In this document: piece by piece, positions 2,061 through 54,414 of the stretch | How the letters are laid out: each line of letters begins with the position of its first letter | How positions within the stretch are numbered: the stretch's first letter is position 1 | Assembly: GCA_038206475.1 (NCBI GenBank) | Contig: JBBRAU010000002.1 | Location: 13,892 to 77,891, forward strand | Direction of reading: 5' to 3' | From: Patescibacteria group bacterium | GTDB lineage: Bacteria > Patescibacteriota > UBA1384 > JBBRAU01 | DNA: 64,000 nt | Made by a program: the position numbers and the translations under genes | The notes under the pieces: generated by a model | What the model was told of the DNA's origin: nothing | Database searches by the model: none | Seen by the model: the letters and a program-made list of their open reading frames with translations, nothing else

Positions 2061-3770
2061 TCAAGTCGCAACCGGTGCCGGCACAGTGATTGTAGTTGGT
2101 TCAGCCGCCTGAATTTCATCAGGTGCTGGCACTTGGGTCTGGTGATTGAGGTCAAATAGACTAACGCCGGTCATGTCAAAGCCCAGCGGACACTGCAACA
2201 ACTGCAACATGGTCGGCGCCACATCGGCCAAAACGCCTTGCGGCCGGAGTGGCCAAAGTTGACTCTGATCAGAAGGTATATAGAGAAATGGTACCGGGTT
2301 CATGGTGTGCTCGGTTTCGGCCTCACCACTTTTGGGGTTAAGCATTTCCTCGGCGTTGCCGTGGTCTGCCGTCAGTAGCGCCGCGCCGTGGTGGTTCCAG
2401 GTCTCTTGGACAATTTGACCAACCAGTTGATCTATCAAGGTCAAAGCAGCGACAGTCGCCGGAAAATTGCCGGTGTGGCCAACCATGTCTGGGTTGGCAA
2501 AATTCAAAATAATGACATCGTCATGGCGGCGGCGGATACGGGCGGTCACCTCAGCAGTTATGGCCCGGGCCGACATCTCCGGTGCCTGGTCGTACGTTGC
2601 AACTTTGACTGAGGGCACTAAAAAACGCTCTTCACCGGGATAGGGCTGCTCATGTCCGCCGTTGAAAAAGTAGGTCACGTGCGCATATTTCTCTGTTTCG
2701 GCAATGTGAAACTGGCGCAGACCATATTTTGCCAGCACCGCCCCGAGCGGCTCTTTCGGGTAGGCCGGATGAAACGCCGGAATAGCCGGTAGTCGGTCTT
2801 CATAGCGGACAAAGGTGACAAAGTAGAGGCCATCAAATTTATGATCTATCTGCATTTTGTGCATATCCGGCACGGTAAAGGCGGCGGTCAGTTGACGGGC
2901 GCGGTCTGGCCGGAAATTGAAAAAGATAAAGGCGTCGTTATTCTCGACTGGTGCTTTCGGTTGGCTGGCGCTGGCAATGACTGTCGGCACTAAAAATTCA
3001 TCAGTCAGGCCGCGGGCGTAGGCTGATTGTAGCACTTGCTCTGCTGTCGGCATTACCTCGCCTTCAGCTTTAGCGATGGCCCGCCAGGCTTGGCTGGTAC
3101 GCTCCCAGCGATTATCACGATCCATGGCGTAAAATCGACCGGACAGGCTGGCAATACGAACATACGAGCTAAGATCAGAGGTTTGCAAATAGCGTGTTAG
3201 CTTGGCTATTTCGGTTAAGCCGGACATCGGCGGCGCGTCGCGGCCGTCGGTGAAGAGATGCAGCAGCACCTCCGGCGGCCGACCGGGCGTGGCGCTAATG
3301 CGCCAGCGAATTAATTCCAGCAAAGCGTACAGGTGATCGGCTGAACTATGCACGGTACCTTGGCCAAACAAACCAAGCAAATGCAAACGCGTGCCGTGCT
3401 CAACAGCGTAAGTAATGGCACCATTTAAGGCCGGATTATCAAAAAAACTCTGGTTATGGATGAGTGAGGAGATGTAGCTGTAGTCTTGCTTAACAATGCG
3501 TCCAGCGCCTAAATTTAAATGGCCAGCCTCTGAGTTGCCGCGCGTTCGCGGCGGCAGGCCAACTGCCTGGCCGCTAGCATCGAGTGAAGCGTGCGGAAAA
3601 TTACGCAAATAATTGAAAAAATTTGGCATAGCGGCTGAGGCCTCGGCATTGCCGCCCCACAGCGGCGCCTCGCCAAAACCATCCAAAATTAAGAGTACGA
3701 GCGGACGCGGCACTCCAGCCACCTGTTTACGGGCATGAAAATCGTCGCTTGAAAACGGCCACATACTCAT
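2061..3770 (-). CDS. gpmI: 2,3-bisphosphoglycerate-independent phosphoglycerate mutase
   Basis: 569 aa; LILDGFG, GNSEAGHLNLGAGR, FTDGRD and TADHGN-type motifs of iPGM. Confidence 0.9.
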   Translation of the reverse strand: MSMWPFSSDDFHARKQVAGVPRPLVLLILDGFGEAPLWGGNAEASAAMPNFFNYLRNFPHASLDASGQAVGLPPRTRGNSEAGHLNLGAGRIVKQDYSYISSLIHNQSFFDNPALNGAITYAVEHGTRLHLLGLFGQGTVHSSADHLYALLELIRWRISATPGRPPEVLLHLFTDGRDAPPMSGLTEIAKLTRYLQTSDLSSYVRIASLSGRFYAMDRDNRWERTSQAWRAIAKAEGEVMPTAEQVLQSAYARGLTDEFLVPTVIASASQPKAPVENNDAFIFFNFRPDRARQLTAAFTVPDMHKMQIDHKFDGLYFVTFVRYEDRLPAIPAFHPAYPKEPLGAVLAKYGLRQFHIAETEKYAHVTYFFNGGHEQPYPGEERFLVPSVKVATYDQAPEMSARAITAEVTARIRRRHDDVIILNFANPDMVGHTGNFPATVAALTLIDQLVGQIVQETWNHHGAALLTADHGNAEEMLNPKSGEAETEHTMNPVPFLYIPSDQSQLWPLRPQGVLADVAPTMLQLLQCPLGFDMTGVSLFDLNHQTQVPAPDEIQAAEPTTITVPAPVAT

Positions 3771-3854
3771 CGCAGCAGTTGAAAATTAATCATTAACATG
3801 GTAGAAGATATAATCTCTGTCCTTTATACCCAGTCTACCAGAAGGAGACCACAA

Positions 3855-4850
3855 ATGGCCCCTGCAACCGTTCGCTTCGGCACCACGTACAGTCCTAGCC
3901 ACGCGGCCTGGACAATGGACAACCGGTTTAAAGCAATCAGCTGGCAAGAAGCACTATCGGCGGTACATGAGCTGAATCTGAAACGTCTGCGCATCGCGGT
4001 GCCTTGGCGCGATTGCGATGAGCAACTTGGCCTGGCTTGGTTGTCCGACATGCTAAAACAAGTAGATCACTCCGGTGTCAGCATCACCATCGCCTCCGGC
4101 TTAAAGACGCCGCGCTGGCCAGAAAATTACCCGCCTACTGACCTGCTGGCGGCCCATCCGCTTCCAGAGCGCAGTGAATTTACTGATGTCTACCGCCCAG
4201 CCCTTGAAGCCTGGTGGCAGCGCCTTTACACCGAGGTGCATCCGTACCTACACCTTGTCGAGGCGATCCAAGTCGAAAACGAGCCGCGTGACTTCTTTGG
4301 CGAAGGTGATCGCCGCATTAGCCTCTCGATGTTGCAGTGGGAGATGGCGCTGGTGCACAGCCTGTTCCATCACCAACAGATCGTCACAACAGTCGGCGCC
4401 CTCGGCGGCACACCGGCGATGCTGTATGGCTACAGCGGCGTCAACCGCAAATGGCGGGAGATGCTGGCATTAGCCCCCAGCAATTTCCGGCTTGGCCTTA
4501 ACCTCTATCAAAAAACTTTCTGGCATGGCTTGCGGCTCAGTGCCAGCCCGCAAGCTTGGAAAAAATTCCGTCACTACGTCCAGAGCGCCCGAGATTCGCA
4601 CCTGCAACCGTTTGTGTCTGAGCTACAAGCCGAGCCGTGGGACAGCCCTCAGCGGTTCGATTACCACGAGATCAACGGTAACCCAACCTGCCGACCCGAG
4701 CAGGTTGAAGCGATGATCCGCAGCGTGCTTGCCGCCGGTATCACTGACATTGACCTGTGGGGGCTGGAATTTTGGCTGCGCTGCCGCCAGCGCTCTAGCA
4801 GCGGCTGGATGGCTCACGTTAAACAGCTGGTTCAAAAGTACCAGCTGTAA
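3855..4850 (+). CDS. Putative glycoside hydrolase (TIM-barrel, NEP catalytic motif)
   Basis: QVENEP motif; start set at ATG 3855, preceded by AAGGAG at 7-nt spacing (ORF track begins at 3798). Confidence 0.45.
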   Translation: MAPATVRFGTTYSPSHAAWTMDNRFKAISWQEALSAVHELNLKRLRIAVPWRDCDEQLGLAWLSDMLKQVDHSGVSITIASGLKTPRWPENYPPTDLLAAHPLPERSEFTDVYRPALEAWWQRLYTEVHPYLHLVEAIQVENEPRDFFGEGDRRISLSMLQWEMALVHSLFHHQQIVTTVGALGGTPAMLYGYSGVNRKWREMLALAPSNFRLGLNLYQKTFWHGLRLSASPQAWKKFRHYVQSARDSHLQPFVSELQAEPWDSPQRFDYHEINGNPTCRPEQVEAMIRSVLAAGITDIDLWGLEFWLRCRQRSSSGWMAHVKQLVQKYQL

Positions 4851-4892: not shown

Positions 4893-5597
4893 TTAAAAAA
4901 CTAGCTTTGGCTCAAGGGTGACTACACGGTGAAACTCATTGGGACCGGCTTGCAGTTGGTGGTAAATCTCATTAGCCACGTCTGAGGGCTGCAGCACATC
5001 GGCCCACTGCGCCGGTGTGAGCTGAAAACCCTGGCGGGCCAGAGGCGTATCAACCAGGCCGGGCGCGACAGCCGAAACGTGAATGTCGCATGGTTTCAGC
5101 TCTTCATGTGCCGCCTCGGTTAAACCGACCACGGCGTACATCGTGGCGTTGTAAGCGCTCTCCTCCGGAAATGGCCGCAGTCCAGCCACCGAGGCCACAT
5201 TAACAATGTAGCCGCGGCCAGCCTGCTTCATAAACGGAATCACCGCTCGCATCAGCACTAGTTTGGCAAAGACGTTCACACTCCAAGCCAAGTGCAGCTT
5301 ATCAAGCGCCAGCTCTTCTATCGGCTGGCTCAAAAATATGCCGGCCGCATTAATGAGTGCGTCAATCTGGCCATGCTCTGCCTGAACGCGACCAACGGTC
5401 TCCGTGACCCACTGATCGTCGGTGATATCGCCAACTTCAGACTGTAAGCCATGGCCGTCATGCTCAGCCAAATGCTCAAGCGACTGCTCAGAGCGATCAA
5501 GCCCGATCACCTGCCAACCCTCGGCCAATAATTTAATAACCACGGCCGAACCGATGCCGCCGCCGGCCCCGCTAACCACAGCTACTTGTTTCGCCAT
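4893..5597 (-). CDS. Short-chain dehydrogenase/reductase (SDR) family oxidoreductase
   Basis: N-terminal Rossmann motif VVSGAGGGIGSAV; start at ATG 5597 with AAAGGA SD. Confidence 0.8.
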   Translation of the reverse strand: MAKQVAVVSGAGGGIGSAVVIKLLAEGWQVIGLDRSEQSLEHLAEHDGHGLQSEVGDITDDQWVTETVGRVQAEHGQIDALINAAGIFLSQPIEELALDKLHLAWSVNVFAKLVLMRAVIPFMKQAGRGYIVNVASVAGLRPFPEESAYNATMYAVVGLTEAAHEELKPCDIHVSAVAPGLVDTPLARQGFQLTPAQWADVLQPSDVANEIYHQLQAGPNEFHRVVTLEPKLVF

Positions 5598-5672
5598 GTT
5601 GTCCTTTCTCTCTTGTGCAGTCATATGTCATTTTTAGATTGCTTCGTCGGCGATAGACTTCTCGCAATGACG

Positions 5673-6236
5673 TTATTTGGTTACCCCGTTGCATGTTTTG
5701 GCATTCCAAAAGCCCAGCCCGGCGGCTTTGGCCGCCGTTTCTACCTGTCTGAAGGTGCCTTGCGCTTGATATGGCTTATCATAGGTGTACTCGTGGGCAA
5801 AGCCTTCGGCAATCAGTTTTTGATTAATGAGCGTACCGTCAGCCAAAAACACATAGCGCAGCAACCGGCCATACTTATCTTGGTCGTCTTGGCTGGTATC
5901 TGGCAACAGTTTGACGCGCTGACCGTCAAGCAGCTTATGTGCCTCCGTCGACGCCTGCGGCCCAAAGCACTGTACCGGTTTGCGTGGGTCTACCACTTCC
6001 GGCGTATCGATGCCAATCAGGCGCACCCGGTCTGTCTTCAGGCGCGAGGTTTTTACGTCAATGGTGTCGCCGTCAATTACTTTGGCCACGGGTACTAACC
6101 CGTCGTTTGGTTGGCTGCTGACATTGTCGGCGGTCGTGTGCCAATCGAAGTGGCTGATCTCACTTACGGCCACTACAACAAAGGCGACGATCGCAATAAG
6201 CAGCAGCCAACCGACAATTACTCTCCGTTCAGGCAT
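5673..6236 (-). CDS. Thermonuclease (staphylococcal-nuclease-like), membrane anchored
   Basis: DGDTIDV...RVRLIGIDTPE SNase motifs; start taken at internal ATG 6236 giving an N-terminal signal anchor (longer ORF runs to 6404). Confidence 0.75.
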   Translation of the reverse strand: MPERRVIVGWLLLIAIVAFVVVAVSEISHFDWHTTADNVSSQPNDGLVPVAKVIDGDTIDVKTSRLKTDRVRLIGIDTPEVVDPRKPVQCFGPQASTEAHKLLDGQRVKLLPDTSQDDQDKYGRLLRYVFLADGTLINQKLIAEGFAHEYTYDKPYQAQGTFRQVETAAKAAGLGFWNAKTCNGVTK

Positions 6237-26936: not shown

Positions 26937-27383
26937 CTAGGCTGCTTTAGTTGAAGTTTGGGTAGTCAAAATGCCCAAGTGAGCGGCGACGCTCTTGGTC
27001 GTGGCAATGCCAGACAGGCTGAAGCGTTTGCTCATGTTCGGCGTGGCGACAATTTTGACAGTACCAGGGCGCGTGCGGAGCAGGCCAACCTGTTTTAAGC
27101 GCTGCGGCGTAATAACTGCTCCCTCGTCAAAGCTCGCTTCAAGCGCCGAAAAACGGACGGTGGCCGATTTTGGCGTCAGTGAGCGGAAACCGTTCAGTTT
27201 TGGCAGGCGTTGCACCAGCGGTGTTTGCCCACCTTCAAAGCGCCGCGGGATGTTGTGGCCCGTGCGCGAGTTTTGACCCTTCGTACCGCGGCCAGCGGTT
27301 TTACCCTGGCCAGCGGCAATACCGCGCCCGACACGGCGGCGGCTCTGCTTCGGCATTGAGACGCGAATATCATGCAGTTGCAT
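26937..27383 (-). CDS. rplO: 50S ribosomal protein L15
   Basis: MQLHDIR...GRGIAAGQGKTAGRGTKGQ; start at internal ATG 27383. Confidence 0.85.
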   Translation of the reverse strand: MQLHDIRVSMPKQSRRRVGRGIAAGQGKTAGRGTKGQNSRTGHNIPRRFEGGQTPLVQRLPKLNGFRSLTPKSATVRFSALEASFDEGAVITPQRLKQVGLLRTRPGTVKIVATPNMSKRFSLSGIATTKSVAAHLGILTTQTSTKAA

Positions 27384-28116
27384 TCGTCTCCTCTGTAGCC
27401 AACACCTCGGCCTTTTTAGTCCGTGGCTTGACGGTTTTCTTGACCGGCGTCGCTTCAACTAGTGCGACTTCCTCAACCATTTCGGCTGTTTTGTGGCTGT
27501 CGGCTTGAACGCGGCGCGGACGGTCTGTTTTGAAAGAGGATAGCGCCAAGAGCGTCGCTTTGGTCATGTTAATTTTATTTGAGCTGCCCAAACTCTTGGA
27601 CAGTACGTTTTTGATTCCCGCCAACTCAATGACCGCCCGAACGGCGCCGCCAGCGACAATCGAAGTGCCAGGAGAGGCAGGCTTGAGCAATAAACGCACG
27701 CCAGAGTAACGGACAGTGCTCTCATGCGGGATCGTGTCATTGATAATAGTGACGGTTTGCATATGGCGTTCGGCCTGCGTTTTGGCTTTTTGTACGGCAC
27801 CCGCCACATCGCCGGATTTAGCCACACCCATACCGACCTTGCCAGCACGGTTGCCCATAACCACCAGCGCTCGGAAGCGGATACGGCGACCACCTTTAAC
27901 GACCCGGGAGACACGGTCAACTGAGACTACACGGTCGTCATACTCACTGGTTGAGCGGCTCCGTTGACCGTCGGTCCGGCCGCCGCCTTGGCGACCGCGG
28001 CGCTGACCGTCTGATCCGCCAGCACGTCCGCCCCCCATTGACCGCGAATAATTCGCTGGAGAGGTGGTTGGCCGTGTTTGAGCTGCGCTCGAGGTGGTTG
28101 GTTGTTCTTCAGGCAT
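27370..28116 (-). CDS. rpsE: 30S ribosomal protein S5 (N- and C-terminal extensions)
   Basis: VVKGGRRIRFRALVVMGNRAGKVGMGVAK core; no rpmD (L30) between rpsE and rplO. Confidence 0.9.
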   Translation of the reverse strand: MPEEQPTTSSAAQTRPTTSPANYSRSMGGGRAGGSDGQRRGRQGGGRTDGQRSRSTSEYDDRVVSVDRVSRVVKGGRRIRFRALVVMGNRAGKVGMGVAKSGDVAGAVQKAKTQAERHMQTVTIINDTIPHESTVRYSGVRLLLKPASPGTSIVAGGAVRAVIELAGIKNVLSKSLGSSNKINMTKATLLALSSFKTDRPRRVQADSHKTAEMVEEVALVEATPVKKTVKPRTKKAEVLATEETNATA

Positions 28117-38384: not shown

Positions 38385-38493
38385 ACATACTCCTTCTGAC
38401 TTACCCATTGGTGCTTAGACACGACCAATGAGGACCCGCATGCGACCCCAAAAGGCCGCTTTGCGTAGAACTTTGATTTATTTACTCATAAGC

Positions 38494-38522
38494 AGACTAA
38501 CTGATTTTATTGCCTTGGTCAA
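38494..38522 (-). promoter_or_regulatory. Candidate promoter for tuf
   Basis: Minus strand TTGACC - 17 nt - TAGTCT, about 110 nt upstream of the tuf start. Confidence 0.35.
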
Positions 38523-38552
38523 TATTTTGCCACCGGGCCGCTGAGGACGATG

Positions 38553-38586
38553 TAAAAAATCCCCACCGCAGTGTTGCGCGGTGGGG
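38553..38586 (-). terminator. Rho-independent terminator after the small secreted-protein gene
   Basis: 9-bp stem CCCCACCGC/GCGGTGGGG followed on the minus strand by AUUUUUU. Confidence 0.65.
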
Positions 38587-38605
38587 ATGAGGATGCTTGC
38601 CGGCC

Positions 38606-38902
38606 TCAGGGGCCGGCGGTGTCCCACGCGGACTCGGGCAGGAGCTCACTCTCCCTGCGGGCACTGTATATCCCCAGCAGGGCCAGATCCTTCTCGTTTT
38701 CCTCGCCGCGGGCCCCCCTGTACAGGGGCAGGAACTCCTTGCACCAGTCCTGCACGTCCGCATCCTCGGACGTGCAGTCACCGGCGATGGCCAGCCTTTC
38801 GCCATCGTCTTGCTGGTACCTTTCTGTGCCGTCGGTGATGTCGAAGAAGCAGAACATCACCACGAGCACCACGCAGGCGAACACTTCAACGATTTTTTTC
38901 AT
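38606..38902 (-). CDS. Small secreted or membrane-anchored acidic Cys-containing protein, unknown function
   Basis: GGAGG SD 7 nt before ATG; N-terminal hydrophobic segment MKKIVEVFACVVLVVMFCFF; own terminator; AGG/CTG/GTG/GAC codon usage. Confidence 0.5.
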   Translation of the reverse strand: MKKIVEVFACVVLVVMFCFFDITDGTERYQQDDGERLAIAGDCTSEDADVQDWCKEFLPLYRGARGEENEKDLALLGIYSARRESELLPESAWDTAGP

Positions 38903-38982
38903 TGCAGGCCTCCTTGGCCGCGAAATAAAAGGAACAGAGAGTGACTATTTAATTTATGCATTATTTAGTATACTTTGTCAAT

Positions 38983-39783
38983 ATGAAGTATCTCTGGCCG
39001 GCCGCTATCACCCTATGCCTACTGAGCCTATTTTTGTGGCTCCACACGTGGCAACGACCGGCAAACAGCATTGCAGCCTCACCGCAAGCCTCCAGCACTG
39101 CCTATTCGGCTCCACCGAACCCGCTGGCCAGCCTTTCAGCCTCCCCCGCTCTAGTAGACAGTCACACGCCTACGCGTATACCTAAGACGCGTCCAGCCAG
39201 CGTCAATATCAGCGTGCCATTTACTGTCCAGGCGCCAACTGGCCGTTGGGATGCCTTTCATGAGGAAACCTGTGAAGAAGCGGCGGCGCTGATGGCTGCC
39301 TATTGGCGCGACGCCAAATTGCACCGCAGCCTGGGTGACCCAGCCAAAATCCCCAACGATACGACCGAGACCGCTCTGCGCGCAATTGCCGATTGGGAGA
39401 CGCAAACGTTCGGCTATTGGCAAGATACGACGGCCACCGAAACAGCCGAAATTATAACCGATTATTTTCACCTGCAGGCGTCAGTAGAAACCATTGTCAG
39501 CACTGACACAATTGAACAGGCGCTGGCCGACGGCCATTTGGTACTGCTGCCGACCGCCGGCCGTCTACTAAATAGCCCCTACTACACGGCGCCGGGGCCG
39601 GCTTACCACTTTTTGCTCATCCGCGGTTATACCAACACCGACTTCATTACCAACGACGCCGGCACGAAGTACGGCGCAGGCTACCAATTTCGGAAAAAAA
39701 CCGTTCTGCAGGCCATTCACGACTGGACAGGAGACGCGGAAACCATTACAACTGGTCGTAGCGTCATGATTGTCGTGCAGTAG
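38983..39783 (+). CDS. Peptidase C39-like (YvpB-like) domain protein, N-terminal signal anchor
   Basis: Hydrophobic N-terminus, Ser/Pro/Ala linker, VPFTVQAPTGRWDAFHEETCEEAAALMAAYW resembling C39_2 catalytic Cys region; start ambiguous (38956 or 38983). Confidence 0.55.
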   Translation: MKYLWPAAITLCLLSLFLWLHTWQRPANSIAASPQASSTAYSAPPNPLASLSASPALVDSHTPTRIPKTRPASVNISVPFTVQAPTGRWDAFHEETCEEAAALMAAYWRDAKLHRSLGDPAKIPNDTTETALRAIADWETQTFGYWQDTTATETAEIITDYFHLQASVETIVSTDTIEQALADGHLVLLPTAGRLLNSPYYTAPGPAYHFLLIRGYTNTDFITNDAGTKYGAGYQFRKKTVLQAIHDWTGDAETITTGRSVMIVVQ

Positions 39784-39804
39784 CTTTGGAGCTCGAAAAG
39801 GGGA

Positions 39805-40206
39805 ATGATGATTGATCTTCAACATATTGATGCGCGTGCTGAACCGCTAACAGAAGAAAAAGTGCAGGCCATCCTGCTTGGATGCCGGATACGGACAGGA
39901 AAAGCAGCCAGAAAACTGTCGGCCGAATGGTATGAACTGAAATATTACCCAAAGTGGAAGGAGGGCTGGCTGCAGCTCAAAATACTGCGTGAAACCCCCT
40001 ATCCCGAGCGAACAGCCATGCTCTATCACTTCCTCGTCACCTTGCACCTTCACCACTGCTTATCCCACACGCACCAACGTCTTGTCGGGCCGATCACGCT
40101 CTGCGACGCCATGGATGAACAAGTGGCGCTGCTCTGCCAAAATGTCAGCCGTAACCCACCGTGGCGGGAGTGGTGGCTGTTGCAGCATATTCCTGGATAC
40201 CGCTAA
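39805..40206 (+). CDS. Hypothetical protein (His/Cys-rich segment LHLHHCLSHTH)
   Basis: 133-aa ORF with upstream AAAGGGG; ends at a hairpin terminator. Confidence 0.45.
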   Translation: MMIDLQHIDARAEPLTEEKVQAILLGCRIRTGKAARKLSAEWYELKYYPKWKEGWLQLKILRETPYPERTAMLYHFLVTLHLHHCLSHTHQRLVGPITLCDAMDEQVALLCQNVSRNPPWREWWLLQHIPGYR

Positions 40207-40208
40207 CC

Positions 40209-40236
40209 AAAACCCCGCTCTCCGGCGGGGCTTTTT
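40209..40236. terminator. Bidirectional terminator shared by the plus-strand insert and fusA
   Basis: CCCCGC/GCGGGG stem flanked by AAAA and TTTTT. Confidence 0.6.
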
Positions 40237-40295
40237 ATAACATAAGCAAATTATCGAGAAGCGTTCAGTTTGGCTGGATGTTTTTAAGCTCCGCG

Positions 40296-42368
40296 CTACC
40301 TGACTTTACCGGCCTTAATCTCTTCGGCGATATTGTTAGGCACTGGATCGTAGTGATCAAACTCCATGGCGTAGCTGGCCCGGCCTTGCGACAACGAACG
40401 CAGGCTGGTGGCGTAACCAAACATCGAGGCCAAGGGCACCATCGCCCGAATAACTTTAATACCAGCCCGCTCAGTCATTTCCTGAATTTGGCCGCGCTTG
40501 GCATTTAAGTCGCCCATGGCGTCACCCATAAACTCTTCTGGAGTAGTCACCTCAACGTGCATGATCGGTTCAAGAATGACCGGCTTAGCCTTGCGCACCC
40601 CTTCTTGGAAGGCCATTGAGCCGGCGATTTGGAAGGCCATTTCAGAGGAGTCAACTTCATGGAAGCTACCGTCATACAGAACGGCCTTAACGTCTACCAC
40701 TGGATAGCCAGCCACAACACCCTTGTGCGTCGCCTCTTCAATGCCTTTAGCCACCGGATTGATGTACTCCTTGGGAATAGTACCGCCGACAATTTTAGAT
40801 TCAAAGGTGAAACCACTGCCTGGCTCGCCGGGCGACAGCTCGAGCCAAACATGGCCGTACTGACCGCGTCCACCAGACTGGCGAATAAACTTGCCCTCTT
40901 GCTTGACCGTTTCGGTAATCGCTTCGCGGAAGGCGACCTGCGGTTTTCCGACGTTCGCTTCAACTTTGAACTCTCGCTTCATGCGGTCAACGATAATCTC
41001 GAGGTGTAGTTCACCCATACCGGCAATGATGGTCTGGCCAGAATCCTCGTCTGTCCGCACTTGGAACGTCGGGTCCTCTTCGGCGAGGCGCTGCAGAGCC
41101 ACACCCATCTTCTCTTGGTCAGCCTTAGTTTTCGGCTCAATCGCGACGTCAATAACCGGCTCTGGGAAGGTTATGGACTCCAGTTGCACCGGGTGCTCCG
41201 GGTCGCAGAGGGTGTTTCCAGTACGAGTGTTTTTAAGGCCGACGGCAGCCGCAATGTCTCCAGAGTACACTTCACTAACATCCTCGCGGTGATTAGCATG
41301 CAGCTGAACAATGCGACCGATACGCTCTTTATCGCCGGTAGCGGTGTTTAAAATGTAGCTGCCGGCCCGCAGGACTCCACGATAAACGCGGAAGAAGATG
41401 AGTTTACCGACAAACGGATCAGCTGCCACCTTGAAGGCCAGGGCGGCAAACGGCGCCTCGTCATCGGCGGCAATGCCAATATCCTCTTTGGTTTTTAAGT
41501 CAACGCCATGGGCTGGTGGCACGTCCAGCGGCGATGGCAAGTAGGCGACAATAGCGTCGAGCAGCGTTTCAACAACGACGCCACGGCCGTCTCCACCAAG
41601 AATCAGGAAGAAGTCGCCTTTAATGACCGCCTTGCGGATGGCTGTCCGAAAATCAGCGTCAGAAATTTCGTCGCCATTTAAGTATTTTTCAAGCAGCGCG
41701 TCATCAGCCTCAACCGCTTTCTCCAGCAATTCCGTACGGTACTGTTCAATTTGAGCGGCCATGTCGGCTGGCGGCTCACCTTCAACCAGCTCGTGGTCAG
41801 TGTAATCTTTATAGGTGTAAGCTTTGCGCGAAACCAGATCAACCACGCCATTCATTGACTGTTCAAAGCCAATCGGCAGCTGCAGGGGGAAGGCATTCGG
41901 CGACAGGCGCTCGCGGATAGAGGCCAGTGAATTAAAGAAATCGCCGCCGGTTTGGTTAATTTTATTAATAAAGCAGATGCGCGGCACTTGATACTTGTCA
42001 GCCTGGCGCCAGACTGTTTCTGACTGCGGCTCAACACCCATTTTGCCGTCAAAGATAACGACGGCGCCATCCAGCACACGCAGCGAGCGCTCAACTTCAA
42101 CTGTAAAGTCAACGTGTCCAGGCGTGTCGATAATATTAATGCGGTGACCCTTCCAAAAGGCGGAGGTGGCGGCTGAAGTAATGGTAATGCCGCGCTCGCG
42201 CTCTTGCTCCATCCAGTCCATGGTGGCTTCGCCCTCATGGACCTCACCGATTTTGTGGGTTTTGCCGGTGCGGTACAAAATGCCTTCGGTCACTGTCGTT
42301 TTGCCTGCATCAATGTGGGCAATCGTGCCAAAGTTGCGCGTGTGGTCTAGAGAGTACTCTCGGGGCAT
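40296..42368 (-). CDS. fusA: Elongation factor G
   Basis: [10 protein letters not shown]1 motif, 690 aa. Confidence 0.95.
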
Positions 42369-42430
42369 GGGGTATTTCGTCTTTCTTCACTTGTGGCAAC
42401 ACAAAATTTGCCGTGTTGTCATCTCTGGCC

Positions 42431-42459
42431 AGACTAGCACAAAAAGGCTGTTTCGCCAA
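42431..42459 (-). promoter_or_regulatory. Candidate promoter for fusA
   Basis: Minus strand TTGGCG - 17 nt - TAGTCT (same -10 hexamer as the tuf candidate). Confidence 0.35.
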
Positions 42460-42480
42460 TCTGGTATGCTCTGCAGATGC

Positions 42481-42891
42481 TCAAAGAAGGCCGAGGTTTT
42501 GCTTATGACGAATAGAGGCTTTGGTACTGTCGCCGGATTTTCTCGGTCGGAGCGACCGGTATTGTAGGTTTGGCGGCCAATATAGCCTCCACGGGTTTAA
42601 CCTGACAAAAAAACGGAGGCGCATGGCGCCTCCGAAGAGTCGTTTTTGAGATTTACATGACTCGACGATGCACACATCATCGGCATGGTCGAACATCGAC
42701 ACAATGACGAACAAGAGCAGCAGCGGATACGGCTCAACATTCTCGATCAGGCCAGGAGCGCTTGGTAGCGTTATGCTGAAGTTGCCCGCCTGAGTATTGC
42801 CAGTTGACGGCGTTTTGCGCACGATGGGGCCGCTATTTCCTACAGGCAGCACGTCTGAATCAATGTGGATGACGGAGCGATTTTCAGGCAT
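42481..42891 (-). CDS. ORF of doubtful coding status downstream of the STAS gene
   Basis: Only open frame in the region; N-terminal two-thirds has plausible codon usage, but the frame runs through a strong terminator hairpin and a rare-codon W/R/P-rich tail. Confidence 0.2.
   Translation of the reverse strand: MPENRSVIHIDSDVLPVGNSGPIVRKTPSTGNTQAGNFSITLPSAPGLIENVEPYPLLLLFVIVSMFDHADDVCIVESCKSQKRLFGGAMRLRFFVRLNPWRLYWPPNLQYRSLRPRKSGDSTKASIRHKQNLGLL
42607..42634 (-). terminator. Strong rho-independent terminator
   Basis: 9-bp stem CGGAGGCGC/GCGCCTCCG with 3-nt loop, followed on the minus strand by U7. Confidence 0.65.
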
Positions 42892-43276
42892 TGGCTTTCT
42901 CCTGTTGCACGAAGGGAGCGAGAAACTGGACGGCTTCTTGCTCGGTTGCAAAAATAGTGAAGGTTTTCGTCAAGCCGGCGGCGTCTAGTACCCGTTGCGG
43001 TTGATCCGTGATCTGCAGCAACACGAGCTGACCCCCGTACCCGCGAATGCATCTGAGGGACCAGACAAGCCCTCCCAGCCCCGCCACGTCCATGTACGTA
43101 ACTAAGTGCATATTGAGGCCAATATAACGCCGGCCCAACAACTTCATTTTGACAACCATCTCGAGAAGACCAGGCGAGCTGTATGTGTCGAGTTCACCCT
43201 GAAGATCCAAAATGGTTACGCCGTCTACTTCTCGCTGCTCAATATCAAACTCCACCGACCTTCTCCTTATTGTCAC
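42884..43276 (-). CDS. STAS-domain protein (anti-sigma-factor antagonist-like)
   Basis: ILDLQGELD...LVTYMDVAGLGGLV...GGQLVLLQITDQPQRVLDAAGLTKTFTIFATEQEAVQFL; GTG start. Confidence 0.7.
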   Translation of the reverse strand: MTIRRRSVEFDIEQREVDGVTILDLQGELDTYSSPGLLEMVVKMKLLGRRYIGLNMHLVTYMDVAGLGGLVWSLRCIRGYGGQLVLLQITDQPQRVLDAAGLTKTFTIFATEQEAVQFLAPFVQQEKANA

Positions 43277-43320
43277 GGTGTTGCAAGATAGCTATTAGCC
43301 AACCACAACCATGGCTTAAA

Positions 43321-43348
43321 AGCAACAAAATCCGGCCTGAAGCCGGAT
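43321..43348 (-). terminator. Hairpin terminator after rpsG
   Basis: ATCCGGC/GCCGGAT stem followed by a U-rich tract on the minus strand. Confidence 0.5.
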
Positions 43349-43371
43349 GTTATCTTGAGACCAGCTAGTTT

Positions 43372-43845
43372 TTAGTAGCGAGCGAAATGAGCGAAAGCGC
43401 GGTTGGCCTCAGCCATTTTATGCATGTCTTCGCGTTTCTTCATGGCAGCGCCGGTGCCGGCAAAACCGTCCGAGATTTCATCAGCTAGGAAACGCCACAT
43501 TGGTTTGCCTTGGCGGTCACGGGCGGCATTAATAATCCAGCGCATGGCCAAAGCTGTGCGACGCTCGGTGCGCACCTCCATTGGTACTTGATAGTTGGCA
43601 CCGCCGACACGACGGCTGCGTACCTCAACCACTGGGCTAACATTTTTAATAACTTGTTCCAACAGTTCGGAAGGCTCTTGCTTGGTGCACTTAGCAGCCT
43701 CTTCCAGCGCCTGATAGACAATCTTTTTGGCCACAGTTTTTTTGCCATTCAACATAACCATATTAATTAATTTGGTTACGGTAATTGAGCCAAATTGCTC
43801 ATCTGGCGGCAGCAGTCTTTTTTTGAGATGGGTCTTCCCACGCAT
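43372..43845 (-). CDS. rpsG: 30S ribosomal protein S7
   Basis: 157 aa, conserved S7 N-terminal pattern and operon position. Confidence 0.9.
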   Translation of the reverse strand: MRGKTHLKKRLLPPDEQFGSITVTKLINMVMLNGKKTVAKKIVYQALEEAAKCTKQEPSELLEQVIKNVSPVVEVRSRRVGGANYQVPMEVRTERRTALAMRWIINAARDRQGKPMWRFLADEISDGFAGTGAAMKKREDMHKMAEANRAFAHFARY

Positions 43846-44356: not shown

Positions 44357-44385
44357 CAAAAAGCCCCGCCAAGCGGGGCTTTTTG
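44357..44385. terminator. Bidirectional terminator after rpoC
   Basis: 8-bp stem AGCCCCGC/GCGGGGCT with 3-nt loop, flanked by AAAAA and TTTTT. Confidence 0.65.
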
Positions 44386-52083: not shown

Positions 52084-52364
52084 GGGCTCCTTCCTCATTC
52101 TCTCTGCTGGCCACCTGCTGCTGGTGACTGCTGAGAAATACCGCTTTCCTGCCCAAACTGCTCTATTTGGGCGATCATCATCTGTCCCCCATGTCAAGAC
52201 AAAATTTTGCCATGGCTCCCGCTGCTGACTGAATCACTCGCTTAGGCGCAAAAACGACCCACATTTTATGCGGCTACAGTAAAGTAGTCGCCTATGCAGG
52301 CTTATACTCAGCGGAAAACTAGGCTAGGGGTGCTACCACGCTGAAAATGTTACTTATGCTTTTA

Positions 52365-52393
52365 TGTATACGCTCCAGTCGTTTGATTGTCAA
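52365..52393 (-). promoter_or_regulatory. Candidate promoter for rpoBC
   Basis: Minus strand TTGACA - 17 nt - TATACA, right after the obg stop; implies a leader of about 280 nt. Confidence 0.3.
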
Positions 52394-52416
52394 GCGTATG
52401 AAGGAAGTGGAAAGTG

Positions 52417-53403
52417 CTACAGATGACTCACAATTTGGCGGACGAGCTCTGGTATTCCAGCGTGAGTAGCGGCGGAGATGACCGCTGGCGGCTGACCGGC
52501 GGTTTGCGCGATCGCCGCCGTCTTTTCGACTAATTCTACCGGCGCAACCAACTCACTCTTGGTTACCACGGCAATCTCTGGCCGGTCCGCCAGAGCCTGA
52601 TCAAAAGCAGCCAGCTCTTGACGGATGGTTCGGTAGGCCTCAGCCATATCTTCGTTCTCAACCGAGATTAAATGAATAAGTAGGCCGGTCCGCCGAACAT
52701 GTTTCAAGAAAGCGTCGCCTAGCCCTTTGCCTTCGGAGGCACCGGCGATCAAGCCCGGGATATCGGCGACGACAAAGGTTTTGTCATCAATCTCAACTAC
52801 GCCGAGCTCAGGCTCAAGCGTCGTAAAGGGGTAGGCGGCAATTTTTGGTTTGGCTCGGCTGATAACCGACAGCAGGGTGGATTTGCCGGCGTTCGGCAGA
52901 CCGATCAAACCGACATCAGCAATCAGCTGCCACTCCAGCTCTAGTTTGCGTTGCTCACCCGGTTGACCTGGCTTGGCCCAATCTGGCGCCTGTTTAATAG
53001 AAGTGGCAAAATGTTGGTTGCCCCAACCACCGTTACCGCCACGGGCCACACGCACAGTTTGGCCGACCGTTTGTAAGTCGGCCAGTTGTTGTTTGCGACC
53101 ATCCGGCAACAGTTCGCGCACAACGGTGCCGACTGGTACAGCCAGCACTAAATCTTCGCCACGTTTACCGCTTTTTTGTTGGCGACCACCCTGCTCGCCC
53201 TCAGGAGCGGCGAAGTCATGTTTGCGGCGAAAGAGGTCTAAACCGTGCGGTCCAGCCTCAGCGCGGACCAAAACATCACCGCCGCGGCCACCGTCACCGC
53301 CGTCTGGTCCGCCGTTTGGCACATACTTTTCACGCCGAAAAGAGACGTGCCCGTCACCGCCGCGGCCGCCTTGAACGTGGATTGTCGCTTCATCAATCAG
53401 CAT
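52417..53403 (-). CDS. obg: GTPase Obg
   Basis: Gly-rich Obg fold N-terminus, GLPNAGKST G1 motif; start at internal ATG 53403. Confidence 0.9.
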   Translation of the reverse strand: MLIDEATIHVQGGRGGDGHVSFRREKYVPNGGPDGGDGGRGGDVLVRAEAGPHGLDLFRRKHDFAAPEGEQGGRQQKSGKRGEDLVLAVPVGTVVRELLPDGRKQQLADLQTVGQTVRVARGGNGGWGNQHFATSIKQAPDWAKPGQPGEQRKLELEWQLIADVGLIGLPNAGKSTLLSVISRAKPKIAAYPFTTLEPELGVVEIDDKTFVVADIPGLIAGASEGKGLGDAFLKHVRRTGLLIHLISVENEDMAEAYRTIRQELAAFDQALADRPEIAVVTKSELVAPVELVEKTAAIAQTAGQPPAVISAATHAGIPELVRQIVSHL

Positions 53404-53827
53404 GCGGACGAGTATACACCAGACGGAGCGGGATATGAAGGGTGCGCCGGCGTTTTGCCTGCAACAAGCCAAGCGGTACAACGACCGTACCGTGGTCGAC
53501 GCTAGCACGAACCACATGGTGGCCGGCCACCTCAATACGGTCCAGCTCAACCTCAAAACCGGCCGGCTGCGGCAGTCTCAGCTGGATATTTTCAAGCACC
53601 AGCGGCAAGTGATTAGTAACAGTAATTTTCGCCACACCAACTTCACCGACAGCAAGCGGCTCGGGCGGCAGAACTTGTTCAATTTGCAGCAAGCGTGATG
53701 AAATTTGGTAGCCCACCGGGTTTTGGGCCGTCTCGGCTGGCAGGGCGGTTCGCCGTTGCCAGCACCAAAATGAGACTGCTGTTGCGCCGAGCTCCAGCAG
53801 CAGGGCGATAGCTACAAGCCCGGTCAT
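53393..53827 (-). CDS. Hypothetical membrane-anchored protein
   Basis: N-terminal TM segment; overlaps downstream obg start by 11 nt and the upstream gene by 4 nt. Confidence 0.4.
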   Translation of the reverse strand: MTGLVAIALLLELGATAVSFWCWQRRTALPAETAQNPVGYQISSRLLQIEQVLPPEPLAVGEVGVAKITVTNHLPLVLENIQLRLPQPAGFEVELDRIEVAGHHVVRASVDHGTVVVPLGLLQAKRRRTLHIPLRLVYTRPHAD

Positions 53828-54414
53828 GGCTGGGTTGAGCTGGCCTGAGGCGGCGCGGGTGTTGTCACCGTCAACGATGCTGGCTGGTCAATCTTCGAGA
53901 CCACGCCGTCCTGTTTGGTCAGCACTAGACTGTCGACTGGAATTGTCAAGTTAACTGCCGCAGACAGCGGCAGTGTACCAAGTGTCATCTGACCCTCGGG
54001 CAGCAAACTATCCGGCAGCATGACAGTCAACTTACGACTGGCCGCATCATAGTGCAGACCGGGTGTGTCTTCGGCTGCCGAAAAACCGGCAAATGCCGGG
54101 TCGACCGGCAGCGTCAGCTCAACTGACTGCAGTGAGCTGTCTGGTACATCGAGAATGAGCGTGGCGGCATCAGTATGATCTTCGGCTAATGTTAATTTTT
54201 CCGGCAAAAAGAATAGGCTTGGCGTTGAGCTAGCCGTCACAATCGCCGTTGGCTGGTCGGCGTAACTGGCGGCGCCGCGTCCTAGCCACTCGCTGCCGCT
54301 GACACCGAGTACCAAGAGAACCGCAATCAAAAAACCGTAGCGGTGGAACGTCTGACGCAGCCACTGCCAAAAGAGCCCGAGCGGGTGCGCGCGGTGAGGA
54401 TGGCGCTTCTGCAT
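53824..54414 (-). CDS. Hypothetical membrane-anchored protein
   Basis: Basic N-terminus then TM (GFLIAVLLVLGV) then soluble domain. Confidence 0.45.
   Translation of the reverse strand: MQKRHPHRAHPLGLFWQWLRQTFHRYGFLIAVLLVLGVSGSEWLGRGAASYADQPTAIVTASSTPSLFFLPEKLTLAEDHTDAATLILDVPDSSLQSVELTLPVDPAFAGFSAAEDTPGLHYDAASRKLTVMLPDSLLPEGQMTLGTLPLSAAVNLTIPVDSLVLTKQDGVVSKIDQPASLTVTTPAPPQASSTQP

Follow-up and report, generated by a model that had tools for sequence, protein, structure and literature searches.

The rpsG-fusA interval

Within the window (the whole stretch of 64,000 nucleotides that was analysed), a gene for a protein that consists of a single STAS domain lies between rpsG and fusA. The order on the minus strand is rpsG, a hairpin terminator, the STAS gene, ~ 250 nt, a very strong terminator, a candidate promoter and fusA, and every element that the first-pass annotation had listed for this interval is present on that strand, although some need correction. 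The features are as follows (positions in the window):

43372..43845, minus strand: rpsG (ribosomal protein S7), the upstream neighbour (Pfam Ribosomal_S7, E = 6.4e-57)
43317..43348, minus strand: hairpin t1, weak and intrinsic-terminator-like, after rpsG (terminator scan)
43263..43268, minus strand: Shine-Dalgarno AAGGAG, 7 nt upstream of GTG 43255 (read from the sequence)
42884..43255, minus strand: gene for a STAS-domain-only protein of 123 aa, SpoIIAA/RsbV type (PF01740, TIGR00377, AlphaFold, Foldseek)
42481..42891, minus strand: ORF136, an ORFan of 136 codons (called by gene callers)
42607..42634, minus strand: strong intrinsic terminator T2 (9-bp stem, 8 G-C pairs, loop of 3, T7)
42579..42608, minus strand: promoter-like site TTGTCA-18-TATATT, alternative fusA promoter (consensus scan, 10/12 matches)
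42431..42459, minus strand: preferred fusA promoter candidate TTGGCG-N14-TGCTAGTCT, extended -10 (genome-specific pattern)
40296..42368, minus strand: fusA (EF-G), the downstream neighbour (Pfam GTP_EFTU, EFG_III, EFG_IV, EFG_C)

In an independent Logan assembly, 4586 bp of the locus (contig L001) are identical to the window and, the identity being 100%, this contig contributes assembly support only. Sequencing run SRR19962014 contains the locus.

The maximal STAS ORF spans 42884-43276, with the GTG at 43276 as its earliest possible start, from which the 130 aa that were originally annotated would be obtained. The likeliest start appears to be the second GTG (43255), which is preceded by the AAGGAG, is the position at which the 123-aa database protein (P0001) starts, and yields an N-terminus that matches those of homologues residue for residue. 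The assignment to the STAS family and the use of a GTG start are retained, but the length is most likely 123 aa.

The stem-loop of t1 (43348-43330; 8 bp, 5 G-C pairs, -11.6 kcal/mol) is followed by TTTTGTTGCTTTT, which fails the strict terminator test (a T-run with 6 or more T among 8 nt), making t1 the weaker of the two terminators; what had been called a terminator after rpsG is a terminator-like hairpin that misses the strict criterion. The stem-loop of T2 (42634-42614) has a free energy of -17.3 kcal/mol. By the strict criterion ~ 9 distinct sites are found on both strands of the window versus 0.1 per shuffle, which places T2 far beyond chance, while a loose scan does not discriminate (8 found versus 7.0 expected). 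Elsewhere in the window, a terminator separates rpoC from rpsL, and fusA and tuf are also separated, by an insertion on the opposite strand.

The candidate fusA promoter noted earlier is present, in fact in the form of two candidates, of which the one at 42459-42431 (63 nt ahead of the ATG of fusA) is the better. Its type of pattern occurs five times in the window, each time on the minus strand (versus 1.45 +/- 1.17 in shuffles) and always ahead of a minus-strand unit, the others being gyrA, rpsL, a tRNA and a unit at ~ 23.9 kb. The consensus promoter scan as a whole gave no enrichment over shuffles. Between rpsG and the STAS start, simple pattern searches revealed no recognisable promoter.

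The possibility that the spacer between the STAS gene and fusA contains a riboswitch or other structured RNA was also considered and rejected: at the gathering threshold, Rfam returned only two tRNAs in the window, and an E-value search of 42300-43420 gave chance-level matches only (best E = 0.19 and 0.44), far under the gathering scores. Folding of the stretch between the STAS stop codon and T2 gives a z-score of -0.68; for the stretch that begins 26 nt upstream of T2 and reaches the fusA start it is -2.3, mostly because of T2 itself.

A STAS protein with valine at the phosphorylation site

The STAS gene is genuine and intact, and its STAS assignment, within the sequence family of SpoIIAA and RsbV (anti-sigma-factor antagonists), is solid. 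Its product matches PF01740 with E = 7.5e-17 and 61.5 bits (cut-off 22.6) and the anti-sigma-factor antagonist family TIGR00377 with 64.3 bits (cut-off 53.45), and a sequence search of the PDB retrieves SpoIIAA chains at E = 4e-13. The AlphaFold model (pLDDT 94.4) has the order beta-beta-alpha-beta-alpha-beta-alpha, and is most similar in structure to SpoIIAA, TM1442 and RsbV (TM 0.74-0.83; 0.82 for the SpoIIAA chain 1TID_B in Foldseek); there are 63 PDB structure matches at E <= 0.001, and nearly all of the best 50 of these 63 are STAS proteins. With the SpoIIAA equivalog TIGR02886 the score is only 46.5, under the cut-off of 114.75, and the protein is therefore not a SpoIIAA orthologue. The codon score of the gene (0.276) falls inside the range of the true genes of the window (mean 0.365), and such host-like codon usage implies a long residence without disruption.

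At the start of helix 2, Val57 (in a DVAG loop) occupies the position at which the DS[ST]G loop has its phosphorylatable serine, as is apparent from the pairwise alignment with SpoIIAA, which places 'tymdVaglg' over 'tfmdSsglg'. Val57 aligns with the serine of Geobacillus SpoIIAA, B. subtilis SpoIIAA and TM1442, and all 14 nearest homologues (alignment A2) have serine in this column. The other core STAS motifs (D56, G59 and G61) are present. Following the replacement of serine by valine, the protein cannot be switched at the canonical RsbW/SpoIIAB-type kinase site, so that a kinase/phosphatase pair is not to be expected, and the 'orphan' state of the gene agrees with its sequence, without missing data having to be invoked.

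Conservation of the cassette and its downstream reading frame

Among the matches listed, 146 loci were compared, in which the rpsG-fusA spacer has a median length of 88 nt and exceeds 300 nt in 13; none of the other 145 loci holds a STAS gene in this spacer, and the CPR loci hold assorted inserts. The STAS protein found no match in a metagenome scan. In the genome and metagenome scans with EF-G and S7, the best of the matches listed are 73% (EF-G) and 59% (S7) identical, with no close relative among them. A protein search with S7 yielded relatives at 73, 68 and 65% identity, all lacking the STAS gene, with rpsG being followed in the nearest ones by a hypothetical gene (68%) or a BrnT/BrnA toxin-antitoxin pair (65%). 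The synteny comparison that had been proposed thus finds the STAS gene in none of the relatives compared and other genes in its place, and since the closest genomes carry different genes after rpsG, the spot is variable in this clade. Not being conserved at its position, the STAS gene does not qualify as a core gene of the str operon (rpsL-rpsG-fusA-tuf). The closest STAS homologue is 44% identical, none of 5.8 billion proteins being closer except the window's own, and the closest homologues are found in contexts that are not CPR-like, i.e. beside a peroxiredoxin or an RsbW-like kinase.

An intrinsic terminator directly after rpsG is also found in two of the relatives (at 73 and 68% S7 identity), with a hairpin plus T-run at this place in relatives L165 and L167. 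Because the nearest relatives have this terminator as well, and unrelated genes after it, the STAS gene is not the cause of the break between rpsL-rpsG and fusA, contrary to the earlier proposal. From the sequence, the transcriptional separation itself remains plausible: terminator-like hairpins bound the cassette and fusA has a candidate promoter. The str operon in this clade can then be seen as a series of separately terminated and promoted units, namely rpoBC, rpsL-rpsG, an insert, fusA, an insert and tuf, with the rpsG-fusA spacer receiving different accessory genes in different genomes. Insertion by a mobile element with flanking repeats found no support, since only short matches at chance level, no PHROG or PADLOC match and an unremarkable base composition were found.

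Judging by sequence comparison, the cassette does not amount to a new kind of system; it is an accessory insertion, if an unusual one, because related genomes carry unrelated accessory genes at this spot. It seems fairly probable that it represents a lineage-specific accessory STAS-only gene that has lost its serine, in a terminator-bounded rpsG-fusA cassette of a poorly sampled Patescibacteria/CPR lineage. The gene would have been acquired as an accessory of this lineage at a clade-variable spot, instead of belonging to the conserved set of str operon genes. Read-through from the rpsL-rpsG unit probably accounts for the transcription of the cassette, as there is no recognisable promoter between rpsG and the STAS gene and the rpsG hairpin is weak; transcription would then stop at T2, after which fusA would be re-initiated from its own extended -10 promoter. 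The protein itself would most likely be a constitutively binding-competent module for a partner encoded elsewhere, or possibly for the co-encoded ORFan (ORF136), with its activity depending on the amount made. If functional, it would be a STAS-only protein that does without phospho-regulation, in a bacterium whose regulators are very few, and would help to identify the binding targets of such proteins in CPR bacteria, although its single, unconserved occurrence limits the wider significance.

The ~ 275 nt of 'unclear' sequence described downstream of the STAS gene do end in a strong terminator, but they are not simply non-coding, as they hold ORF136. This frame reads through T2 without an in-frame stop ahead of it, and T2 is the only strict-criterion terminator of the window that is not intergenic. 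The coding-like part is restricted to the first 85 codons (42891-42637): the codon log-likelihood score is 0.147 on the 5' side and falls to -0.305 on the 3' side, where 40 codons score as non-coding. Among 1.84 billion representatives, ORF136 has no homologue but itself.

These features raise the possibility, which is nevertheless considered unlikely, that the cassette is a decaying relic, i.e. a horizontally acquired two-gene module (STAS plus partner) that is degenerating and of which both products are functionless; the downstream gene could have diverged past recognition and lost its stop, and so now read into the terminator. Such decay would be consistent with the valine in place of an otherwise invariant serine, with an ORF136 that is without homologues, crosses a terminator and ends in 40 codons that score as non-coding, and with the cassette being a singleton that is unconserved among relatives. 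Yet the STAS ORF is intact and has a strong Shine-Dalgarno sequence, its codon usage is host-like, and its product retains D56, G59 and G61 and folds in silico with very high confidence, all of which argue against a relic.

Partners and comparison with known systems

No partner kinase or phosphatase had been seen nearby, and this was borne out for the kinase in the 64-kb window and for the phosphatase in the ORFs scanned. Pfam scans of ~ 46 ORFs of the window revealed no kinase, no PP2C/SpoIIE phosphatase and no Sigma70 domain, nor any ABC transporter or SulP genes near the STAS gene. Six-frame searches of the window likewise gave no kinase (best E = 1.6 with an RsbW-kinase profile) and no second STAS domain (HMM search), with which the presence of Val57 fits.

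Still less likely than decay is a canonical partner-switching antagonist with its kinase, phosphatase and sigma factor elsewhere in the genome, which would be regulated via another residue (e.g. Thr53) or by stoichiometry alone. The protein is nearest to SpoIIAA, RsbV and TM1442 in both sequence and fold, homologues such as P0010 adjoin an RsbW-type kinase gene, and the partner search covered only 64 kb of the genome, so that there is some room for this explanation. Against it stand the missing phospho-acceptor and the negative outcome of the searches (kinase and second STAS in six frames, PP2C and sigma factor in the scanned ORFs), as well as the general character of CPR genomes, which are small and have few regulators.

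It is a little more doubtful again that the cassette encodes a novel two-protein module. In this case the STAS protein would have a genuine partner, its translation coupled to that of the STAS gene, in ORF136 (or in the first ~ 85 residues of it), which would have one hydrophobic helix and might be membrane-anchored by analogy with a single-pass anti-sigma factor. Translational coupling to the STAS gene may occur, given that the start of ORF136 overlaps the STAS stop by 8 nt and that an AGGAG lies 7 nt upstream of its ATG. Moreover, the frame is called by gene callers, its codon score of 0.147 is frame-specific (the other frames score -0.6) and exceeds the 95th percentile of spurious ORFs, and one hydrophobic helix (residues 55-77) is predicted in a single-sequence AlphaFold model. 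The pLDDT of that model is, however, 47 (uninformative), and further points against a real partner are the lack of homologues, the lack of an in-frame stop ahead of the strong terminator, and the absence of matches in Pfam, NCBIfam, PADLOC and PHROG. By eye, an 'xLPSxP...HA' stretch of ORF136 resembles the N-terminus of RsbW/SpoIIAB kinases, from which the idea of a degenerate kinase arose; this idea was rejected, as hhalign against a 22-sequence RsbW profile gave a probability of 0.1%. The least probable proposal is that in this reduced CPR genome the Val57 protein, locked in the unphosphorylated state, is produced at a level proportional to rpsL-rpsG transcription via a leaky terminator and, with or without the co-translated ORFan, is a kinase- and phosphatase-free minimal partner-switch that ties ribosome and translation status to a downstream target, or, in a variant, that translation of ORF136 across T2 may decide how much upstream transcription enters fusA.

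Returning to the accessory STAS-only gene, the closest known systems are SpoIIAA and RsbV (TIGR00377; PF01740; PDB 1TH8, 1TID, 6M36), which likewise are single-domain STAS proteins (~ 115-125 aa) and agree in their beta-alpha order. Geobacillus SpoIIAA is 33-34% identical to the protein described here (TM 0.82, rmsd 1.9 A). The D-x-x-G-L-G loop is retained where helix 2 begins, but the phospho-acceptor (Ser58 in SpoIIAA, Ser56 in RsbV) is valine here. SpoIIAA and RsbV are furthermore encoded in a sigma-factor operon, whereas the present gene lies between rpsG and fusA with no gene for a kinase (SpoIIAB/RsbW), phosphatase or sigma factor adjacent to it. TM1442 of Thermotoga maritima (PDB 1SBO, 1VC1) is also a stand-alone STAS protein (30% identity, TM 0.80) and has the same D-x-A-G-L-G variant of the loop, but keeps its serine (DSAGLG versus DVAGLG).

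A stressosome role of the RsbS/RsbR type, for which co-encoded RsbR, RsbT kinase and RsbX phosphatase would be required, is not indicated, with no second STAS domain or kinase in the window, valine at the equivalent position and RsbS being 16% identical. MlaB and the STAS domains of SulP/SLC26 bind proteins or act as regulators constitutively and have no phospho-switch, but they are far more distant: MlaB, which is encoded with mlaF/mlaE, ranks 49th (TM 0.56) and the window contains no ABC transporter genes, while SLC26 is 15-23% identical.

The non-canonical STAS-only proteins SypA, RbaV, HmpV and BtrV act unphosphorylated on unknown targets, and their output is thought to be the binding of a partner, not necessarily an anti-sigma factor, by the unphosphorylated STAS protein (PMC8256260). 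Kinase and phosphatase functions are co-encoded with them (SypE, RbaW/RbaY, HmpW/HmpU and BtrW/BtrU, respectively), whereas no such pair adjoins the STAS gene here, and they keep the serine that is missing in the present protein. Compared to these four, the Val57 protein would remain permanently in the unphosphorylated state.

Layout of the rpsG-fusA spacer

The first-pass annotation placed an orphan STAS gene between rpsG and fusA; this observation was confirmed on the sequence, and the interpretation attached to it is supported in part. The spacer is laid out as follows (all minus strand).

43372: end of rpsG
43348-43330: rpsG hairpin, 8 bp, -11.6 kcal/mol, followed by TTTTGTTGCTTTT
43276: GTG, earliest possible start of the STAS ORF, as first proposed
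43255: GTG, preferred STAS start, with AAGGAG at 7-nt spacing
42884-42886: STAS stop, overlapped by the ATG of ORF136
42891 (ATG) to 42481 (stop): ORF136, 136 codons, AGGAG 7 nt upstream, reading through T2
42634-42614: T2, a textbook terminator, 9 bp with 8 G-C pairs, -17.3 kcal/mol, then T7
42368: fusA start

The GTG start codon of the STAS gene stands, but the GTG at 43255 is preferred over that at 43276 because of its AAGGAG spacing, because the database protein (P0001) begins there, and because from there the N-terminus (MEFDIEQREVDGVTILDL) aligns with homologues (MALDIEQREREGITILDL) starting at residue 1. The terminator claimed after rpsG is found as a hairpin, but it is weaker than T2, the strong terminator that had also been noted downstream of the STAS gene.

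Loose scans of the window showed no enrichment of terminators (8 sites vs 7.0 expected) or promoters (4 vs 3.4). When terminators were required to have a perfect stem of 7 bp or more, 5 or more G-C pairs and 6 or more T among the 8 nt that follow, ~9 distinct sites remained in the window, compared to 0.1 per shuffle, all at gene ends or in spacers with the sole exception of T2, which lies inside ORF136. Among them are sites that follow gyrA, infB and the gene at 3798-4850 (a 350-aa plus-strand ORF that no Pfam model matches at E<=0.001), one in the rpoC-rpsL spacer, and one upstream of tuf. Inspection of upstream regions furthermore brought out a genome-specific pattern that resembles a promoter (a -35 with an extended -10), TTGnnn-N14-TGnTAnnnT, which has 5 matches in the window versus 1.45 +/- 1.17 in shuffles, all on the minus strand and each directly preceding a unit.

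63465-63437, minus: gyrA
44307-44279, minus: rpsL
42459-42431, minus: fusA
24074-24046, minus: the ~23.9 kb unit
2064-2036, minus: a tRNA

Promoters in this lineage could be modelled on this pattern. The candidate fusA promoter reported earlier is present, with 42459-42431 as the preferred putative site over TTGTCA-18-TATATT at 42608-42579; from the rpsG hairpin to the STAS start, no site comparable to the pattern was found. The STAS gene sits in a variable spacer, in a cassette with a weak hairpin upstream and a strong terminator downstream, and fusA has its own putative promoter. The cassette is probably expressed by read-through from rpsL-rpsG.

What had been described as unclear sequence after the STAS gene does contain the strong terminator, but it is open as ORF136, the 5' part of which is coding-like. 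Codons were scored with a log-likelihood model fitted to 27 confident window genes: the 85 codons upstream of T2 reached 0.147 in frame, with -0.62 and -0.69 for the two alternative frames, and the 40 codons after T2 scored -0.305. True genes averaged 0.365 (5th percentile 0.056) and spurious ORFs -0.18 (95th percentile 0.110), so that the 5' part seems coding or recently coding, and the tail not. ORF136 had no match in Pfam, NCBIfam, PADLOC or PHROGs, an exhaustive phmmer search of 1.84 billion representatives returned only itself, and a single-sequence AlphaFold model was uninformative (pLDDT 47), with one predicted hydrophobic helix at residues 55-77. When tested, the idea of a decayed RsbW kinase was rejected, and a structured RNA in this stretch was likewise ruled out. 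ORF136 may be a genuine small protein, a gene whose stop has been lost, or a 3' UTR open by chance. The main rival reading is that the cassette may be a relic on its way out. The STAS gene is real, intact and host-adapted, encoding a STAS-only protein of the SpoIIAA/RsbV family.

Variable cargo in a divided str operon

Among the matches listed, 146 loci carried both rpsG and fusA, with a median spacer of 88 nt (13 exceeding 300 nt); the longer spacers occurred mostly in CPR genomes and held unrelated genes. Synteny comparison placed a STAS gene in the spacer at this genome's locus and at none of the others surveyed. What follows rpsG in other CPR genomes differs, as in these examples.

L010, 3431-3853: 140-aa hypothetical protein
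L011, 2450-3868: 472-aa ORF, glycoside hydrolase-like by eye only
L052, 3450-3887, opposite strand: transposase-like ORF by eye only
L165 (S7 68%): terminator after rpsG, then at 3450-4406 a hypothetical gene of at least 319 aa, not fusA
L166 (S7 65%), 5166-5725, opposite strand: BrnT/BrnA toxin-antitoxin pair
L167 (S7 73%): hairpin and T-run right after rpsG, then contig end

Given the nearest S7 relatives (L165-L167), termination after rpsG and variable downstream cargo are characteristic of the clade, and the STAS cassette is one example of such cargo. Across everything searched, only this genome has the STAS gene. In Patescibacteria, the rpsG-fusA spacer appears to have served repeatedly as a landing site.

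In the window, fusA and tuf are also split (38409-40295), by two plus-strand genes.

38956-39783, plus: Peptidase_C39_2-like protein
39805-40206, plus: 133-aa ORFan
38587-38560, minus: very strong hairpin terminator ahead of tuf, -21.4 kcal/mol, then T6
38522-38494, minus: promoter-like TTGACC-17-TAGTCT ahead of tuf

With plus-strand genes, a terminator and a promoter-like site in this gap, the str operon is divided into at least three pieces, each with its own punctuation. A terminator also splits rpoC from rpsL: their spacer holds a symmetrical G-C-rich hairpin (44363-44379) with T-runs on both strands, resembling a bidirectional terminator, and rpsL-rpsG therefore appears to be a unit apart from rpoBC.

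The window as a whole consists of housekeeping genes, nearly all on the minus strand, including gyrA, infB, cdaA-ybbR, obg, rpoB, rpoC, rpsL, rpsG, fusA, tuf, the S10-spc-alpha ribosomal block, several aminoacyl-tRNA synthetases, and DUF5671 and DUF3048 proteins. Directly upstream of rpoB lie obg (52417-53556) and two ORFs without Pfam match (53393-53827 and 53824-54414), and the usual rplJ-rplL (L10, L7/L12) was not seen there (52198-54414). Within the ribosomal block, a 173-aa ORF between secY and rpsE (26937-27458) has no Pfam match at E<=0.001. Among the matches listed from 185,579 species representatives, EF-G was closest to an unclassified MAG (73%), followed at 63-68% by Saccharibacteria, Falkowbacteria, Moraniibacteria and 'Patescibacteria group' MAGs; S7 gave 73, 68 and 65%, then many named Patescibacteria (5.8-billion-protein set). 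On these matches, the genome belongs to a poorly sampled CPR/Patescibacteria lineage.

The STAS protein and its relatives

As the first-pass annotation had it, no partner is visible nearby: ~46 ORFs (nearly all substantial window genes) contained no HATPase_c, HATPase_c_2, SpoIIE/PP2C or sigma-70 domain, and an HMM from 22 RsbW-type kinases gave no match across the 572 six-frame segments of the 64-kb window (best E=1.6). A STAS HMM run on the six-frame segments found only the STAS gene itself.

Among 5.8 billion proteins, the closest homologue besides the window's own protein is 44% identical and encoded next to a peroxiredoxin; others, 33-37% identical, include one adjoining an RsbW-type kinase gene, on contigs whose kinase has homologues with the label Acidobacteriota. 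Scanning metagenomes for the STAS protein gave no match. The closest homologues (P0002; JGI 3300043331 and 3300056388; 43-44%, 138 aa) share a C-terminal 'FV.Q' extension, and on their short contigs the P0002-type genes are followed after 2 nt by an AhpC/TSA peroxiredoxin gene, and they lie near a 4Fe-4S ferredoxin and not beside a kinase.

Sequence and fold place the protein in the STAS/anti-sigma-antagonist family. Pfam STAS (E=7.5e-17), STAS_2 and the NCBIfam anti-sigma-factor-antagonist superfamily model all match it, though the SpoIIAA equivalog model does not, and among solved structures it has matches to chains of SpoIIAA, TM1442 and RsbV (E=4e-13 to 7e-9). AlphaFold with a 15-sequence alignment gave a confident model (pLDDT 94.4, pTM 0.88), for which SpoIIAA in complex with SpoIIAB (TM 0.82, rmsd 1.9 A, 34% identity) is among the best structural neighbours, together with TM1442 and RsbV; RsbS, SLC26 STAS domains and MlaB are clearly more distant.

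The serine at the N-terminus of helix 2 is the residue phosphorylated by the anti-sigma factor/kinase, which inactivates the antagonist, and several non-canonical STAS-only proteins act unphosphorylated on unknown targets (PMC8256260). The STAS protein lacks this phospho-serine, which defines a canonical partner-switching antagonist: all 14 retrievable homologues carry Ser where it has Val57, and with valine there it cannot be switched by phosphorylation at this site. The key difference is visible at the helix-2 N-terminus, which reads ...FMD-S-SGLG in SpoIIAA, ...YMD-S-AGLG in TM1442 and ...YMD-V-AGLG here. The protein most likely acts as a binder whose activity follows its abundance. It adds an aberrant member to a well-known family, and the location of its gene is unusual but not conserved.
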